Shown one piece after another: positions 3,280-27,771 of a stretch of 64,000 nucleotides of DNA. The notes below the pieces were generated by a model that saw only the letters and a list, made by a program, of their open reading frames with translations, made no database searches and had not been told where the DNA came from. How positions within the stretch are numbered: the stretch's first letter is position 1; each line of letters begins with the position of its first letter. A program made the translations under genes and the position numbers. Source of the DNA: Escherichia coli (GTDB lineage Bacteria; Pseudomonadota; Gammaproteobacteria; Enterobacterales; Enterobacteriaceae); the NCBI RefSeq assembly GCF_024223415.1, contig NZ_CP100500.1. The stretch is one strand, 5' to 3'.

Positions 3280-3789
3280 ATGGCGACGCTGACAGAAGAT
3301 GATGTGCTTGAGCAACTGGATGCACAGGACAATTTATTTTCATTTATGAAAACTGCGCATTCTATTTTGCTCCAGGGGATACGCCAGTTTCTGCCGTCGC
3401 TGTTTGTCGATAACGATGAAGAGATCGTCGAATATGCAGTGAAGCCGTTACTCGCCCAAAGCGGCCCGCTTGACGATATTGATGTCGCACTGCGTTTGAT
3501 TTATGCGCTGGGGAAAATGGATAAATGGCTGTACGCCGATATCACGCATTTTTCCCTGTTCTGGCATTACCTGAACGAACAGGATGAAGCGCCCGGATTT
3601 GCCGATGACATGACCTGGGATTTTATCAGCAACGTCAATAGCATAACCTGCAATGCGACGCTCTATGACGCGTTGAAAGCGATGAAGTTCGCCGATTTCG
3701 CCGTCTGGTCAGAGGCGCGTTTTAGCGGAATGGTCAAAACGGCGCTGACGCTGGCAGTAACGACCACCTTAAAGGAATTAACGCCGTGA
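3280..3789 (+). CDS. yggD: MtlR-like small protein (reported as fumarase E)
   Basis: 169-aa ORF; synteny. Confidence 0.8.
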   Translation: MATLTEDDVLEQLDAQDNLFSFMKTAHSILLQGIRQFLPSLFVDNDEEIVEYAVKPLLAQSGPLDDIDVALRLIYALGKMDKWLYADITHFSLFWHYLNEQDEAPGFADDMTWDFISNVNSITCNATLYDALKAMKFADFAVWSEARFSGMVKTALTLAVTTTLKELTP

Positions 3790-4499
3790 AAATTGAATTA
3801 ACGGTGAATGGGCTGAACGTGCAAGCGCAGTACCATGATGAAGAGATAGAACGCGTGCATAAACCGTTGCTGCGTATGCTGGCGGCCTTACAGACGGTAA
3901 ATCCGCAGCGCCGAACCGTGGTTTTTCTTTGCGCTCCGCCGGGGACGGGGAAATCTACCCTAACCACCTTCTGGGAATACCTCGCGCAACAAGACCCGGA
4001 ACTGCCCGCTATTCAGACGCTGCCGATGGATGGTTTTCACCATTACAATAGCTGGCTGGATGCGCATCAATTGCGCCCCTTCAAAGGCGCACCAGATACA
4101 TTCGATGTGGCGAAACTGGCGGAAAATCTGCGCCAGGTAGTGGAAGGGGATTGTACGTGGCCGCAATACGATCGACAAAAGCATGATCCGGTTGAAGATG
4201 CGTTGCACGTTACCGCACCACTCGTCATCGTCGAAGGAAACTGGTTGTTGCTGGACGACGAGAAGTGGTGCCAGCTTGCGCAATTTTGTGATTTCTCGAT
4301 CTTTATCAACGCGCCAGCTACTGCGTTGCGGGAACGACTGGTAGGGCGCAAGCTGGCGGGAGGGGTATCGCTGGCAGATGCAGAAGCTTTTTATGACCGT
4401 ACCGACGGGCCGAATGTTCGCCGGGTGCTGGAAGAGAGTCTGCCTGCAAATTTGACTTTAATGATGACCGCTACGGGTGAATATCGTCTGGTGGATTAA
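3786..4499 (+). CDS. yggC: P-loop nucleoside/pantothenate-kinase-like protein
   Basis: 237-aa ORF with Walker A motif PPGTGKST; overlaps yggD stop. Confidence 0.85.
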   Translation: MKIELTVNGLNVQAQYHDEEIERVHKPLLRMLAALQTVNPQRRTVVFLCAPPGTGKSTLTTFWEYLAQQDPELPAIQTLPMDGFHHYNSWLDAHQLRPFKGAPDTFDVAKLAENLRQVVEGDCTWPQYDRQKHDPVEDALHVTAPLVIVEGNWLLLDDEKWCQLAQFCDFSIFINAPATALRERLVGRKLAGGVSLADAEAFYDRTDGPNVRRVLEESLPANLTLMMTATGEYRLVD

Positions 4500-5148
4500 C
4501 GTTCCTGATTAGACCATCTTCCAGTCGCACCACACGAGAGAAATGACGCCGGGTAAATGCGGCGTCATGACTGATTGCTACGACGCTCGTGCCTCGCTGG
4601 CGGCACTTCTCCAGCCAGCTTTCAAACACGCTCAACCAATTTTCGTCAAAATCCCGACTCGGCTCGTCCAGCAGCAATAGTGGCGGAGAGAGTGCTTCCA
4701 GGCAGGCGACGGCGACCATCCGTCGCTGCGCACTATGCAGATCCAACGGGTGCGCGTTGGCAGTGTCTGCTAACTGACAACATTGCAGGGCAGCATGGGT
4801 ACGTTGAGTGATTTCATCCGCCGGGCATTTTTGCAGTTTCAAACCAAATGCGATCTCGTCAGCGACGGTGCTGTGAAAAAGTTGGTTTTCCGCTTCCTGA
4901 AACAGTACGCCAATCTTTGCCGCGCGCTGGCGGTTTTTCAGGTTTTTCATCGCCTGTTGTTGCAGCATAACCGTACCGGCTGTGGGCGTAAGAAGACCTG
5001 CCATTACTCGTAACAGCGTCGATTTCCCTGCGCCATTGTCGCCGGTCAGCGCCAACCATTCACCTTGTTTGAGTTGCAGAGAAATGTCGCAAAGACAATC
5101 CGTTGCCGCGCCAGGCCAGCGATAAGATATCTGATTTAACGTTAACAT
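4471..5148 (-). CDS. ECF/ABC transporter ATPase, second subunit, degenerate signature motif
   Basis: Walker A GDNGAGKST, Walker B LLLLDEP, H-loop ISHD, but LHSAQRR in place of LSGGQ; ATG at 5148 lies 1 nt upstream of the stop of the preceding ATPase gene (ATGnTAA); 3' end overlaps yggC convergently. Confidence 0.7.
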   Translation of the reverse strand: MLTLNQISYRWPGAATDCLCDISLQLKQGEWLALTGDNGAGKSTLLRVMAGLLTPTAGTVMLQQQAMKNLKNRQRAAKIGVLFQEAENQLFHSTVADEIAFGLKLQKCPADEITQRTHAALQCCQLADTANAHPLDLHSAQRRMVAVACLEALSPPLLLLDEPSRDFDENWLSVFESWLEKCRQRGTSVVAISHDAAFTRRHFSRVVRLEDGLIRNVNPPDDIHP

Positions 5149-5825
5149 AGTGGCTGGAGCGCTCCGTTTTGCAATTGCCACGCTTGCTGGCAGTAGTTCA
5201 GGAAAGGTGTGCGATGACGTTCAAAAAGAATAATCAGCGAACCACGTTCAAACGCCCAGTGTTGTAAGCGCTGCAACAGCATTTCGCTGGCCTGCGGCGT
5301 CAGGCGGCTAAAGGCTTCATCAAGAATTAATAGCTTTGGCTGCATCGCGATGGCGCAGGCGATGACCACGCGCTGTGTCTCTCCACCGGAGAGTGTTGCC
5401 GGGTGACGATGGCGCAACGGCTGGCACTCGGTCAGAGTCAGGGCGGCATCAATCCGAGCCATAATCTCTGCTTCAGCAAGACACAGATTTTCTGGCCCAA
5501 AGGCAACTTCTTCTTCCACGCTAAAGGTACAGCCGGAGAGCTGCAAATAGGGCGATTGCTGGACGAGCTGGATGGTGGCGGATTGTTCATTAAGCGGGAG
5601 ATGCCCAATGGGCGTACCGAGGAGCGTCCCCGTGCCTGTTATCTCTCCTGGCAGAAAGTCCGGATACCAGCCCGCCATCAGCTGTGCCAGCGTACTTTTG
5701 CCACTGCCGTTGTCACCAAAGATGGCGACCATCCCCGGTTTGACATAGTGAAAGTCATAACAGAACGGAGGATGTGTTGAGTGTGTCGGGCAATAACGGA
5801 ACTGTTCTAACGTAACCATATCCAC
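5142..5825 (-). CDS. ECF/ABC transporter ATPase, first subunit
   Basis: Walker A GDNGSGKST, canonical signature LSGGETQR, Walker B LLILDEA. Confidence 0.75.
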   Translation of the reverse strand: MDMVTLEQFRYCPTHSTHPPFCYDFHYVKPGMVAIFGDNGSGKSTLAQLMAGWYPDFLPGEITGTGTLLGTPIGHLPLNEQSATIQLVQQSPYLQLSGCTFSVEEEVAFGPENLCLAEAEIMARIDAALTLTECQPLRHRHPATLSGGETQRVVIACAIAMQPKLLILDEAFSRLTPQASEMLLQRLQHWAFERGSLIILFERHRTPFLNYCQQAWQLQNGALQPLC

Positions 5826-6514
5826 GCTCCGAATTCTGTCAGCATCAGCAAGATCATGGTGTAACGCGCTACGCGTTGTAGGGTGCTATCGGCTGGTGCC
5901 CACAACGTTGTTCGTCGATTGTGGATCCGAAATGCCCGCATATCCAGCGCCGCACCACGGACAGCAAGATCGTTTAGCGCATTGTGTGTTAGCGGAATAA
6001 TTAACGCGGGCATCGCACGTAAACGCTGATACCAGCCCTCATCCAGCGGCACGCCGCGGGCACGCTGCGCTTCATGAATAATCGCTAATTGCCGTTTTAA
6101 CTGCTCAACGACCAATAACGGCCCGGCAAACAGATAAGCGACGCCTGGCGGCAGGCGAGAAGCAAACAGAGCGCGGATAAAACATTGCACGGGGACGTAC
6201 TGCATCCACAACTGTGAGGTTGAAACAATCGCCAGAATCCGCAACCAGAGCGTAATAGCATGCGTCCAACGCTCCGGCGAACGCGGCGTGCCGCTTAGCC
6301 ATTCTGTTAGCCAGCCACCGTGTACCAGCCACAGCCCGGCTCCCAGCGAGAACATCAGCCAGACGACATATTTTGCCCGCCGCCGCGTGGCCTTTAGCGC
6401 AATAAGGCAGAAAAAGGTCGCCGCGCTATAGATCGGCAAAATGGTCTGCGCGGGCAGGATAAGCGTGGTGCAGGCCGCCAATGCCCACAGTGTTAATGAG
6501 GTAAATGGATGCAT
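5807..6514 (-). CDS. ECF transporter transmembrane T component (CbiQ/EcfT-like)
   Basis: Hydrophobic 235-aa protein with Ala-Arg-Gly motif (EAQRARGVP); start ATG directly abuts stop of upstream S gene (TAAATG). Confidence 0.65.
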   Translation of the reverse strand: MHPFTSLTLWALAACTTLILPAQTILPIYSAATFFCLIALKATRRRAKYVVWLMFSLGAGLWLVHGGWLTEWLSGTPRSPERWTHAITLWLRILAIVSTSQLWMQYVPVQCFIRALFASRLPPGVAYLFAGPLLVVEQLKRQLAIIHEAQRARGVPLDEGWYQRLRAMPALIIPLTHNALNDLAVRGAALDMRAFRIHNRRTTLWAPADSTLQRVARYTMILLMLTEFGAWIWLR

Positions 6515-7093
6515 TTAGCGCACGGCAGCCATTGCCGGAAAATGGCGCGTGGTGCGAATCGGCAGCTGGCGCAGTAAAAGCCAGACAATCACCGCTGTAA
6601 GAGTTTTATCGACCAGGTTCGCGCCTATCACCGTAATCGCCACCGACTCCACCAGGTTTTGCCCCATCGAGTGCATCCAGGCAACGAACAAATCGGCTCC
6701 GCTACCGGTGACACCGCCGAACAGCGCAGTACGCAGCGGTACAGCGACGACCGTTACCGCAAGCGTAATAATCACGCCGCTGACAACGACTTTTGGCAGG
6801 GTGCGGAACCAACCCGCTCGCGCCAGCCAACCGGCGACCAGGCCGATGACCATCGCCACGGGCGCAAATGCGGCGGCGATCGGGTCGGTCAGCAATCCCC
6901 AGAGTAAATTGGTCAGTAAACCGGTCAGCATCCCGATCACCGGACCAAGCAGTACCGCGCTAATAAGTGTGCCGATGGAGTCGAGAAATATAGGTAATTT
7001 GACCATGCTGGCCAGTTGCCCGCCGATCATATTGATGGCGATAGATATAACGATTAACACCAGCGCCTGACTGGAAAAGTGGCTACGCGCCAT
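6515..7093 (-). CDS. small integral membrane protein, candidate ECF substrate-specific S component
   Basis: About 192 aa of mostly hydrophobic helices; preferred start ATG 7093 with GAGAGG Shine-Dalgarno upstream (track ORF extends to 7192); position immediately upstream of T and A genes. Confidence 0.55.
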   Translation of the reverse strand: MARSHFSSQALVLIVISIAINMIGGQLASMVKLPIFLDSIGTLISAVLLGPVIGMLTGLLTNLLWGLLTDPIAAAFAPVAMVIGLVAGWLARAGWFRTLPKVVVSGVIITLAVTVVAVPLRTALFGGVTGSGADLFVAWMHSMGQNLVESVAITVIGANLVDKTLTAVIVWLLLRQLPIRTTRHFPAMAAVR

Positions 7094-7115
7094 AAGAAAA
7101 CCTCTCTGAAAGTAG

Positions 7116-7547
7116 TTATTTAACGGGGGAAATATGCAACTCGTCGTAACCAGAAAGCGCGCAAGGTTGGCGGCTAAACGCCAGTTCCTCAAGGCTACCG
7201 ATCACCAGTTCAAGCGTGGTCCGCACGGTACAGCCGGGCATCATATGACCGCCAAGCATCGTGCCGTGTGGATCGGAAACGCAGAGATGAAGATGCTCAC
7301 CACTCTGTTCCAACGTGCCGTTTAGTGAGATCACTTCGAATGTACCGTTCAGGAGCGTGGTGCCTTCTTGCCCGGCATAGCGCAAGGCGATGTCAGTCAG
7401 GCTACCGGTACAGCCTGCAATCCAGGCGGCATGAAGTTGCTGCTGCTGTGCAAAAGCGTGTAGCTGGGAAAAAACTTCCTGCCCGGGGAGGAGGCGCAGT
7501 GCGTAAAAGCGTGCGGAGGAAGAATATGGGTAGGGCAATGTCATCAT
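7116..7547 (-). CDS. small soluble protein, possibly DUF296/PPC-domain family
   Basis: 143-aa ORF, first gene of the minus-strand operon; family assignment from memory of sequence character only. Confidence 0.45.
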   Translation of the reverse strand: MMTLPYPYSSSARFYALRLLPGQEVFSQLHAFAQQQQLHAAWIAGCTGSLTDIALRYAGQEGTTLLNGTFEVISLNGTLEQSGEHLHLCVSDPHGTMLGGHMMPGCTVRTTLELVIGSLEELAFSRQPCALSGYDELHISPVK

Positions 7548-7918
7548 TGGAGTACTCCGAAACTCGGACGTATTGCGGATAATATCGACGCTGCATCAGT
7601 CATATTCTGATATAAGTCAGGGTTTGTGACGGCACAACGAAAAGATTTTGCTACGCTTATTCGTGATTCTGCAAAGTGGAATAAATTCCACAGGGGCGGG
7701 GCTGAAAACGTGACGTAAGTCAGATAATTGTCTTCTTTGACTGGACAATCATTCCTTTTATTCCACGTTTCGCTTATCCTAGCTGAAGCGTTTCAGTCGA
7801 TTAAATGTTCGACAATTAACCAATCAGTCGCAGTTTGCGACAGGTAAGGTTTCCCCGGACGATTTGCTGGATTACTCTGTCTGGCAAATTTGCTCAGGGA
7901 AAACCTTGCAGGAGATCT

Positions 7919-8938
7919 ATGACCGTACGCGTAGCGATAAATGGCTTCGGTCGCATCGGGCGTAATGTGGTTCGTGCTTTGTATGAATCCGGACGCCGGG
8001 CGGAAATTACCGTGGTGGCAATCAACGAACTGGCGGATGCTGCGGGCATGGCGCATTTGTTGAAATATGACACCAGCCATGGCCGTTTTGCATGGGAAGT
8101 ACGACAGGAACGCGATCAACTTTTTGTTGGTGATGACGCCATCCGCGTATTGCATGAACGTTCACTGCAATCGCTCCCCTGGCGTGAACTTGGCGTTGAT
8201 GTAGTCCTCGACTGCACCGGCGTATATGGCTCCCGCGAGCATGGCGAAGCGCATATTGCCGCCGGGGCCAAAAAAGTGCTCTTTTCACATCCTGGCAGTA
8301 ACGATCTCGACGCGACCGTTGTTTACGGCGTCAATCAGGATCAACTTCGTGCGGAACACCGCATCGTTTCTAACGCTTCCTGTACCACGAATTGCATAAT
8401 TCCCGTCATCAAATTGTTAGATGATGCGTACGGTATTGAGTCCGGCACTGTGACCACAATTCACTCCGCCATGCACGATCAACAGGTTATTGATGCATAC
8501 CATCCTGACCTGCGTCGCACCCGGGCAGCCAGCCAGTCGATCATTCCGGTCGATACTAAACTGGCCGCCGGTATCACACGATTTTTTCCGCAATTTAACG
8601 ATCGCTTTGAAGCGATTGCGGTACGTGTGCCAACCATAAATGTGACGGCAATCGATTTAAGCGTGACGGTGAAGAAACCTGTAAAAGCCAATGAAGTCAA
8701 CCTGTTGCTGCAAAAAGCAGCACAAGGTGCATTTCATGGTATAGTTGACTATACGGAATTGCCGTTGGTCTCTGTAGATTTTAACCACGATCCGCACAGT
8801 GCCATTGTCGATGGCACCCAAACCCGGGTCAGTGGCGCACACCTGATCAAAACGTTGGTCTGGTGCGATAACGAATGGGGCTTTGCTAACCGAATGCTCG
8901 ACACGACGTTAGCTATGGCTACTGTTGCTTTCAGGTAA
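7919..8938 (+). CDS. epd: D-erythrose-4-phosphate dehydrogenase
   Basis: Starts [15 protein letters not shown] (GAPDH-family NAD-binding motif), 339 aa; AGGAG Shine-Dalgarno; upstream part of the track ORF rejected. Confidence 0.95.
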
Positions 8939-11509: not shown

Positions 11510-11610
11510 GCCTGATGCGCTACGCTTATCAGGCCTACACGTATCCTGCAATATATTGAATTCGCAGGTTTTTGTAGGCCGGATAAGGCGTTCACGCCGC
11601 ATCCGGCATG
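11510..11610. repeat. BIME: two REP palindromic units in opposite orientation
   Basis: gcctgatgcgctacgcttatcaggcctac and gtaggccggataaggcgttcacgccgcatccggcatg. Confidence 0.8.
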
Positions 11611-26764: not shown

Positions 26765-26905
26765 TAAAGCCCTCACCGAAGCGAGGGCTTGAAGGAGAAG
26801 GGTTATGATGCGACTTGTCATCATACTGATTGTACTGTTACTCATAAGTTTCCCAGCTTATTAACAGTCAGTCTCAGGGGAGGAGTCATCCTCCCTTACC
26901 CTTAC
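26765..26905 (-). ncRNA. sibC: Sib antitoxin sRNA antisense to ibsC (ends approximate)
   Basis: Minus-strand sigma70-like promoter TTGACA (26940-26935), 18-nt spacer, TAATTT (26916-26911) downstream of the ibsC stop; known ibs/sib architecture. Confidence 0.55.
26805..26864 (+). CDS. ibsC: type I toxin, Ibs-family hydrophobic peptide (19 aa)
   Basis: atgatgcgacttgtcatcatactgattgtactgttactcataagtttcccagcttattaa encodes MMRLVIILIVLLLISFPAY; GAAGGAGAAG Shine-Dalgarno upstream; below the length cutoff of the ORF track. Confidence 0.75.
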   Translation: MMRLVIILIVLLLISFPAY

Positions 26906-26964
26906 TCACTAAATTAGGTTAAAGAATCAACGATGTCAATCAGGGCGATGCAGGTGTGTCGCCC

Positions 26965-27585: not shown

Positions 27586-27771
27586 AGGGAATCTCCGAGA
27601 TGCCGCCGCAGGCTGTAACCCTTGAACCCTTGGTTCAAGGTGAATGTGTCGTCGCAGTTTTAAGGCTTCTCGGACGGACCGAGCATGCTCACCAACCGCG
27701 GAGCGCCACATTCTTGTGGTATGAAATATCGGCTCAGGGGACTGGCCCGCTTGCGAACATCTCAGAGAAAT
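27586..27771 (-). ncRNA. ssrS: 6S RNA
   Basis: Reverse complement of AUUUCUCUGAGAUGUUCGCAAGCGGGCCAGUCCCCUGAGCC...GGCAUCUCGGAGAUUCCCU matches over the whole length. Confidence 0.9.

Follow-up and report, generated by a model that had tools for sequence, protein, structure and literature searches.

The intergenic region between lmiA and epd in Escherichia coli O157:H7 as a probable back-to-back promoter region

Introduction

In Escherichia coli O157:H7 the gene for erythrose-4-phosphate dehydrogenase, epd, is transcribed away from an operon that encodes an ECF transporter. What does the long stretch of DNA between the two operons do? Riboswitches often control ECF S components, and such control is frequent among the vitamin ECF transporters of Firmicutes. 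A sequence-only reading of the region had proposed that it must contain the epd promoter as well as a promoter and leader for the accessory operon, and had regarded regulatory cross-talk or a cis-regulatory RNA as possible. We examined these proposals in a window of 64,000 nucleotides of E. coli DNA that contains the locus; all coordinates refer to this window. A 1.2-kb query spanning the region gave a 100% match to O157:H7 chromosomes.

Results

Layout of the divergent genes

The intergenic gap extends from 7548 to 7918 and splits the lmiA start codon (7547, minus strand) from the epd ATG (7919–7921, plus strand). The distance of about 370 bp between the divergent starts given by the sequence-only reading is borne out, the exact figure being 371 bp. 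The description of the region as AT-rich also holds relative to its surroundings, as the GC content is 43.9% in 7548–7918 vs 53.2% in the flanking coding DNA. The several direct and inverted repeats that had been noted stood only in part. Inverted repeats (k=7–9) were mildly enriched over dinucleotide-preserving shuffles (P = 0.03–0.05), whereas direct repeats stayed at shuffle level, with 7 observed at k=7 vs 4.7 expected from dinucleotide-preserving shuffles (P=0.23). Direct repeats were rejected as a real feature because their count is not above chance. The notable inverted repeats coincide with functional palindromes or stems: the Cra box, a stem in the epd leader (7846–7859 with 7894–7907) and GTGGAATAAATTCCAC at 7676–7691. 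At about this last palindrome the homology to E. coli without the island (K-12/B type) sets in again. A related motif, TTATTCC/GGAATAA, recurs 5' of epd in many genera.

The left operon comprises five genes, of which lmiA is the first (z4267 or ECs3799; 7116–7547, minus strand). Its product carries a PPC/DUF296 domain (Pfam PF03479, E=3.5e-28; RefSeq annotation) and was named LmiA (PMC7667037). The other four genes encode the S component (CD3073 family) and the T component of an ECF transporter, together with two ABC ATPases. The operon corresponds to O-island 119, z4267–z4271, equivalent to ECs3799–3803 (tag mapping confirmed). On the right, epd (7919–8938, plus strand; Pfam Gp_dh_N/C, RefSeq) is the first gene of epd-pgk-fbaA.

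The start sites reported for lmiA (7637) and epd (7787) lie 150 bp apart and are oriented divergently. A scan of 7400–8050 for sigma-70 promoters found no site with at least 9 of 12 matches to TTGACA-N16-18-TATAAT, and both promoters were accepted on published start-site mapping, not on the sequence scan. This is consistent with two promoters that are weak by consensus and activator-dependent, in keeping with their regulation.

The lmiA promoter P1

The lmiA promoter described by Liu et al. (mBio 2020; PMC7667037) is the same locus, and its elements map exactly onto 7637, 7645–7674 and 7701–7719. Primer extension in that study gave one major product and located the start 90 nt 5' of the ATG, at a T. 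This T is at 7637 on the minus strand, giving a 5' UTR of 90 nt (7548–7637). The P1 core promoter occupies 7645–7674 on the same strand, with the −10 element TAGCAAAAT (7653 to 7645) and the −35 element TTGCAG (7674 to 7669), both as reported there. The DNase I footprint of PhoP, CTTACGTCACGTTTTCAGC, extends from −82 to −64 relative to the lmiA start (7701–7719, minus strand), and the reported 'PhoP box' covers 7705–7721 (PMC7667037). The published footprint positions fall on 7719–7701 with no start other than 7637, which makes the mapping of the lmiA start self-consistent.

PhoP acts at lmiA according to footprinting, EMSA and ChIP, and expression was lower in a phoP mutant (PMC7667037). Leftwards, P1 starts the lmiA-ECF transporter transcript at 7637 with its 90-nt leader, and PhoP activates it at low Mg2+. 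LmiA itself was reported as an activator of the LEE1/ler promoter (PMC7667037). Autoregulation by LmiA through its published 17-bp motif, TTAAAGTCGTTTGTTAA, was considered and rejected; the best match in the region has mismatches at 7 of the 17 positions, which is chance level.

The epd promoter and its regulators

The K-12 epd start was mapped 132 nt 5' of the ATG by 5'RACE and pyrosequencing (PMC2759082). The promoter sequence in Table 1 of that study (ACATTCC...CCTAGCTGAA) matches 7749–7787 and ends at 7787. For EDL933, Cappable-seq gave epd starts at 132 and 33 nt (7787 and 7886; PMC10469882 supplement), and in contrast to K-12, EDL933 is the only strain with a reported start at −33. The −10 hexamer, TATCCT (7775–7780, plus strand), precedes the mapped start by 7 nt and is conserved as TATyyT across genera. 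With both starts mapped by published experiments, the proposal that both the epd promoter and the accessory operon's promoter and leader lie in the region is supported. The leaders so defined, of 132 and 90 nt, differ from the short leader with a simple promoter that had been named as the contrary outcome.

Published work shows that epd is under Cra repression and CRP activation (PMC2759082). ChIP-exo in K-12 placed Cra over the epd −10 element and start and CRP upstream in a class I arrangement, given there without coordinates (PMC5888115), and epd was also recovered as a CRP target in genomic SELEX (PMC3105977). The Cra (FruR) operator, GCTGAAGCGTTTCAGT, lies at 7782–7797 and covers −5 to +11 of the epd promoter. 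It matches the palindromic Cra consensus GCTGAAACGTTTCAGC at 14 of 16 positions and is the sole match with two or fewer mismatches in 64 kb, where 0.37 sites with three or fewer mismatches would be expected. The operator was invariant in nine genome-derived intergenic regions; metagenome loci collected later were picked by an exact match that included the Cra box, and they are excluded from this count.

The only good CRP-like site upstream of the epd promoter is CGTGAcgtaagTCAGA (CGTGA-cgtaag-TCAGA, 7709–7724), with 2 mismatches to TGTGA-N6-TCACA. Taken alone such a match is at chance level, as 33 matches with 2 mismatches were observed in 64 kb vs 27 expected. Its centre, 7716.5, is −70.5 from the epd start at 7787, 1 bp off the canonical −71.5 (class I centres were taken as near −61.5, −71.5, −82.5 or −92.5). 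We infer that 7709–7724 is the exact site from which CRP controls epd. Rightwards, a sigma-70 promoter starts the epd-pgk-fbaA transcript at 7787 with a 132-nt leader, CRP-cAMP at the predicted site 7709–7724 (class I) activates it, and Cra bound at 7782–7797, over the −10 element and start site, represses epd and overrides CRP.

From about 7710 rightwards the O157 sequence is near-identical to the epd-pgk-fbaA promoter (epd P0/P1) of K-12/B-type strains, and the two share the −132 start, the Cra box and the position of the CRP site. They differ in the left CRP half-site, TGTGA in K-12 and CGTGA in O157, and in what lies further upstream. K-12 has the 3' flank of yggC there, whereas O157-type DNA upstream of about 7677 has the divergent lmiA operon.

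Conservation follows the published elements

Identity across genera was 100% for the Cra box, 86–92% for the epd core promoter, 78–88% for the lmiA core promoter and 77–86% for the CRP/PhoP site. The epd leader reached about 80%, the spacers 48–70% and synonymous sites in epd about 51–57%. As judged from these identities, purifying selection maps onto the published elements, because identity there is far above that of spacers and synonymous sites. Strong conservation was also found where the published elements do not fully account for it, namely at 7556–7568, 7579–7584 and 7607–7620 and in the invariant GATTACTCTGTC of the epd leader.

History of O-island 119 at this position

O-island 119 has been treated as horizontally acquired (PMC7667037). 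Matches were obtained in 5,425 complete E. coli genomes, and in 3,328 of them the match took in the lmiA side of the region. The remaining matched genomes, of K-12/B type, match only from about 7698–7717 rightwards. A sharp right boundary of the island was rejected, since the homology to K-12-type DNA declines step by step over about 7644–7710 and does not break off cleanly; it is weak from 7677 and strong from about 7705–7710. The right junction is gradual, and therefore the core of lmiA P1 lies at the island edge, with its upstream activator site in DNA of the shared backbone.

E. albertii, E. whittamii and Silvania confinis have yggC, the ECF-PPC operon and epd in this order. In Citrobacter sp. 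Cu233 the operon adjoins yggC (the sequence examined stops before the epd side), and in Silvania hatchlandensis, a Leclercia MAG and Klebsiella oxytoca it adjoins epd (with no yggC recovered in the sequence examined). One Escherichia sp. genome carries a partial deletion scar, and the linkage of PPC and ECF genes is present even in alphaproteobacteria. Because of this synteny across at least four genera (Escherichia, Klebsiella, Leclercia, Silvania), the PPC-ECF linkage and the deletion scar, the O-island 119 operon is probably ancestral at this position and was probably lost in K-12-type strains. This reading, drawn from comparative gene order, contradicts the horizontal acquisition assumed in PMC7667037.

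A site that may be shared by CRP and PhoP

The PhoP footprint (7701–7719) and the predicted CRP core (7709–7724) overlap by 11 bp, a coincidence with the epd CRP site that PMC7667037 does not mention. Among 65 unique enterobacterial sequences the CRP match had 1 mismatch in 52 and 2 in 13, whatever lay upstream (lmiA, yggC or other DNA), and the columns GTGA and TCA were invariant. The same DNA read as a PhoP box had 4–9 mismatches in related genera. In O157 the PhoP box, GACTTACGTCACGTTTT, has 4 mismatches to (T/G)GTTTA-N5-(T/G)GTTTA, above the limit of two set for a match. It was not among the 147 sites in the window with three or fewer mismatches, a number itself near chance (116 expected). 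Since the site is kept as a CRP site and not as a PhoP box across the 65 sequences, its ancient role is CRP control of epd, and the use of it by PhoP looks like a recent overlay. A C at 7709 was found only in island-carrying E. coli and in E. albertii among these sequences. With C in this place the TGTGA half-site is weaker, and the GTTT of a PhoP half-site arises.

Competition between CRP and PhoP at the overlapping site is plausible on this pattern. The overlap gives the earlier suggestion of regulatory cross-talk a basis that had not been foreseen. In a fuller form of cross-talk the two proteins, CRP for epd and PhoP for lmiA, would compete or cooperate at 7701–7724, so that Mg2+ would affect epd-pgk-fbaA and cAMP would affect lmiA. 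The 11-bp overlap favors this, as do the retention of the CRP site in all 65 sequences, those without lmiA included, and the restriction of C7709 to lineages in which it trades TGTGA for the GTTT of PhoP. However, the PhoP footprint required 2.5–5 µM protein (PMC7667037), the PhoP box is distant from its consensus, and the CRP centre, at 79.5 bp from the start of lmiA P1, does not fit the phasing usual for class I sites. We regard cross-talk of this kind as a tentative proposal that is rather unlikely as it stands.

A promoter-like module within the lmiA leader

Three of the conserved blocks outside the published elements lie in the 90-nt lmiA leader and form an ordered module. A candidate CRP/FNR-family palindrome, CTGATATAAGTCAG (7607–7620), whose core is TGAT-N4-ATCA in other genera, is followed after 22 nt by the −10-like hexamer TATTAT (TATnAT; 7579–7584, minus strand) and after a further 7–8 nt by a palindrome of the form TCCGA(G)-N-(C)TCGGA. 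In O157 the latter is TCCGA-AAC-TCGGA (7556–7568), and in other genera TCCGAG-A-CTCGGA. It overlaps the lmiA Shine-Dalgarno sequence GGAG (minus strand, 7558 to 7555) and is a candidate operator or a candidate 5'-terminal/Shine-Dalgarno hairpin; the hairpin energy is −8.5 kcal/mol (z −1.4). Between the centre of the first palindrome, 7613.5, and the first base of TATTAT there are 29.5 bp, a spacing that corresponds to class II (−41.5) geometry.

This arrangement raised the possibility of a second, proximal lmiA promoter (P2) inside the leader, with a CRP/FNR-family activator at −41.5, TATTAT as the −10 element and a predicted start at about 7572. The leader of P2 would be about 25 nt long and would begin with the TCCGA-N3-TCGGA hairpin or operator. 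P2 would switch the operon on under oxygen limitation (through FNR) or carbon limitation (through CRP), and it would add to P1 and the regulators described above, not replace them. The module is not mentioned in PMC7667037.

The sequence and spacing of the three blocks are kept in 24 diverse enterobacterial intergenic sequences, with the 7556–7568 palindrome nearly invariant. Within the hexamer, different genera share T1, A2, T3, A5 and T6 but not position 4, which is the conservation pattern of a −10 element. Each enterobacterial locus with the PPC gene has a single copy of the TCCGA-N3-TCGGA palindrome. Buttiauxella provides a further argument for P2. Its operon does not adjoin epd and the P1 block is absent, and the module CTGATATATGTCAT-22 nt-TATTAT-8 nt-ACGTCCGAGGTTCGGAG is retained, with the TCCGA palindrome about 110 nt from the start codon. 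In one of the alignments a mis-oriented sequence is to be disregarded. Expression data point the same way. In a microarray study of strain Sakai, ECs3799, ECs3800 and ECs3802 rose 2.3–2.9-fold as oxygen became limiting and clustered with the FNR-activated pflB, narK, adhE, yfiD and nrdDG (PMC2241611).

Several observations argue against P2. Primer extension gave its one major product at −90 (PMC7667037), and a strict pattern search by the microarray authors found no FNR site (PMC2241611). In O157, CTGATATAAGTCAG (CTGAT...GTCAG) has 3 mismatches to the FNR consensus TTGAT-N4-ATCAA, a match no better than chance (64 kb gave 299 such sites where 251 were expected), and the base that discriminates between FNR and CRP is a C, fitting neither; other genera carry CTGATATAAATCAG, with 2 mismatches to the FNR consensus. 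A plain CRP site at 7607–7620 was rejected, as the palindrome has 3 mismatches and FNR fits better, although the case is ambiguous. The conserved blocks could also work at the RNA level instead. The module shares with class II FNR/CRP promoters (activator at −41.5, no −35) a TGA-N6-TCA-type palindrome, the 29.5 bp to a −10-like hexamer, the lack of a recognisable −35 element and the co-induction of the lmiA operon with the FNR regulon under oxygen limitation. It differs from them in its imperfect consensus match and in lying within the transcribed leader of P1, and it is predicted from sequence. On balance we place the existence of P2 slightly below an even chance.

A riboswitch in the lmiA leader is very unlikely

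The possibility of a cis-regulatory RNA was examined with Rfam scans and folding. A permissive scan of 7400–8100 (E≤10) returned one chance hit, an Avashort thermometer at 15.6 bits vs a gathering score of 88 (E=3.5). At the gathering threshold the whole window yielded only 6S, Sib and ES036, all outside the region, and 15 related loci, 13 of them with the homologous operon and alphaproteobacterial loci included, yielded no riboswitch. The lmiA leader folded no better than shuffled sequence (z −0.14), and a structured lmiA leader was rejected on this result. A riboswitch or known RNA family was likewise rejected on the scans of the region, the window and the 15 related loci.

Control of the ECF transporter operon by a riboswitch or another ligand-sensing leader has two points in its favor, the length of the leader at 90 nt and the frequent riboswitch control of ECF S components. 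Operons of this type that are run by TPP, FMN or preQ1 leaders resemble the lmiA operon in having an ECF S gene behind a leader of about 90 nt. They differ from it in that the lmiA leader matches no covariance model and shows no extra folding stability, and the related loci scanned contained no riboswitch. Moreover, the conserved blocks of the lmiA leader, a palindrome and a −10-like hexamer, are signals of the DNA type. We consider ligand-sensing control by this leader very improbable, and the earlier suggestion of a cis-regulatory RNA was not supported here as regards a riboswitch or another known RNA family.

The epd leader may have a minor RNA-level role

The 132-nt epd 5' UTR (7787–7918, plus strand) gave a different result on folding. 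Its MFE was −50.4 kcal/mol (z −3.87), and none of 200 shuffles folded as well. The long-range stem formed by 7846–7859 with 7894–7907 ends beside the Shine-Dalgarno sequence AGGAG (7910–7914). The E. coli structure was paired in 79% of cells over 43 distinct leaders from genome and metagenome loci vs 27–54% in slid controls, a comparison that is biased because the E. coli sequence had itself supplied the structure under test. The covariation score was 0.130 vs 0.036–0.068 for the slid controls.

These values suggest that the epd 5' UTR could act in cis as an RNA, the stem beside the Shine-Dalgarno sequence limiting initiation and adding to the low level of Epd compared with Pgk and FbaA. Such a role agrees with the finding, credited in PMC2948425 to Bardey et al. 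2005, that epd is poorly translated. The consensus fold of the leaders in RNAalifold was weak, however (−7.6 kcal/mol), with 1 compensatory pair only. The inner helix was paired in only 65%, and the leader matched no Rfam family. The conserved blocks also fit the −35 and −10 elements of the Cappable-seq start at 7886. A conserved small ORF in the leader (ATGTTCGACAATTAA) was rejected; its ATG is not conserved and is ACG in Leclercia. An RNA-level role for the epd leader is possible but rather unlikely, and the structured leader may have a weak translational effect.

Discussion

The region between lmiA and epd is very probably a compact bidirectional ('back-to-back') promoter region that is controlled by DNA-binding proteins, Cra, CRP and PhoP, and not by RNA. 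The feature is real, and its main parts were already published; experiments by others had shown both transcription starts, the control of epd by Cra and CRP, and the binding and activation of lmiA by PhoP. To this extent the answer to the question raised by the locus was largely already known. What appears to be new is the overlap of the predicted CRP site with the PhoP footprint, the promoter-like module in the lmiA leader and the revised history of the island.

These three points can be joined in one proposal, which comparative sequence analysis suggests and which we judge doubtful as a whole. A site of about 20 bp would serve both CRP and PhoP by way of a lineage-specific T to C change at 7709, which in island-carrying E. 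coli and in E. albertii would have turned part of an old CRP site into half of a PhoP box; the ancestral PPC-ECF promoter would be the proximal one, of class II CRP/FNR type with an operator or hairpin at its start; and O-island 119 would be ancestral and lost in K-12.

The residual value of the locus lies in EHEC regulation, since lmiA activates the LEE pathogenicity island. If the proposal is true, the dual site would couple Mg2+ sensing, carbon status and an activator of LEE virulence at a single bidirectional promoter. The class II proximal promoter would give induction of lmiA under oxygen or carbon limitation in the gut. If P2 drives lmiA, or if PhoP and CRP compete beside the glycolytic operon, signals of oxygen, carbon and magnesium would converge on virulence.

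Position and history of O-island 119

O-island 119 occupies 4471-7676 of the window and was compared with the related loci L004, L005, L007, L008, L009, L011 and L021. The order yggC, lmiA-ECF operon, epd is common to E. albertii, E. whittamii and Silvania confinis, and the operon adjoins epd in S. hatchlandensis, a Leclercia MAG and K. oxytoca. What is left in Escherichia sp. E1V33 (L021) corresponds only to residues 1-27 of the PPC protein and residues 176-236 of an ATPase. The published view of this island is horizontal acquisition (PMC7667037). The conserved position of the operon across genera, together with the E1V33 remnants, suggests on the contrary an ancestral O-island 119 that K-12-type strains have lost by deletion.

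Epd and Pgk are 100% identical between the window and island-free E. coli (L002), whereas YggC of the latter (L002 2212-2925) shares only 84% identity with that of the window (3786-4499). The sequence flanking the island there thus represents a divergent allele, an observation suggestive of recombination or an old polymorphism. At 4471-4499, 29 bp are shared by the operon's last ATPase gene (4471-5181, minus strand) and the 3′ end of yggC (3786-4499, plus strand), which converges on it.

Locus L003 carries the label of a Citrobacter sp. MAG, yet over 7548-7918 its intergenic region is essentially identical to that of the E. coli window, and its proteins show 92-98% identity. This bin is probably E. 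coli DNA under the wrong taxonomic label.

The epd promoter and other elements of the window

At 7709, in the left half-site of the CRP site (CGTGA), C instead of T is confined to E. albertii and island-carrying E. coli; this base also gives the reported PhoP half-site its GTTT core. Around the epd promoter, in the window and in many other loci, a TTATTCC/GGAATAA motif is found repeatedly. It takes the form of a palindrome, GTGGAATAAATTCCAC, at 7676-7691 and, within the -35/spacer region of the epd promoter (7751-7764), of two ATTCC copies 9 bp apart. In genera without lmiA, one or two more copies lie upstream of the CRP site.

In EDL933, Cappable-seq lists a second start for epd at 7886 of the window, 33 nt ahead of the ATG (PMC10469882); this start is not reported for K-12. 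The invariant GATTACTCTGTC block (TACTCT, 7873-7878) could serve as its -10 element.

Elsewhere in the window, Rfam gathering-level matches were obtained on the minus strand for ES036/CssrF sRNA (11531-11573, within the REP-rich spacer that follows fbaA), a Sib antitoxin RNA (26789-26939) and 6S RNA (27588-27771).

Linkage of PPC and ECF genes in distant bacteria

At loci L013-L016 and L019, from alphaproteobacteria and an unclassified proteobacterial MAG, a PPC/DUF296 gene is followed by genes for the ECF S component and ATPase; the T component is also present in all but L015. Aestuariivirga and Paracoccus are among these distant carriers. Given this linkage, the ancestral role of the PPC protein was probably tied to the transporter, a role that sits oddly with the description of LmiA as a dedicated LEE transcription factor.
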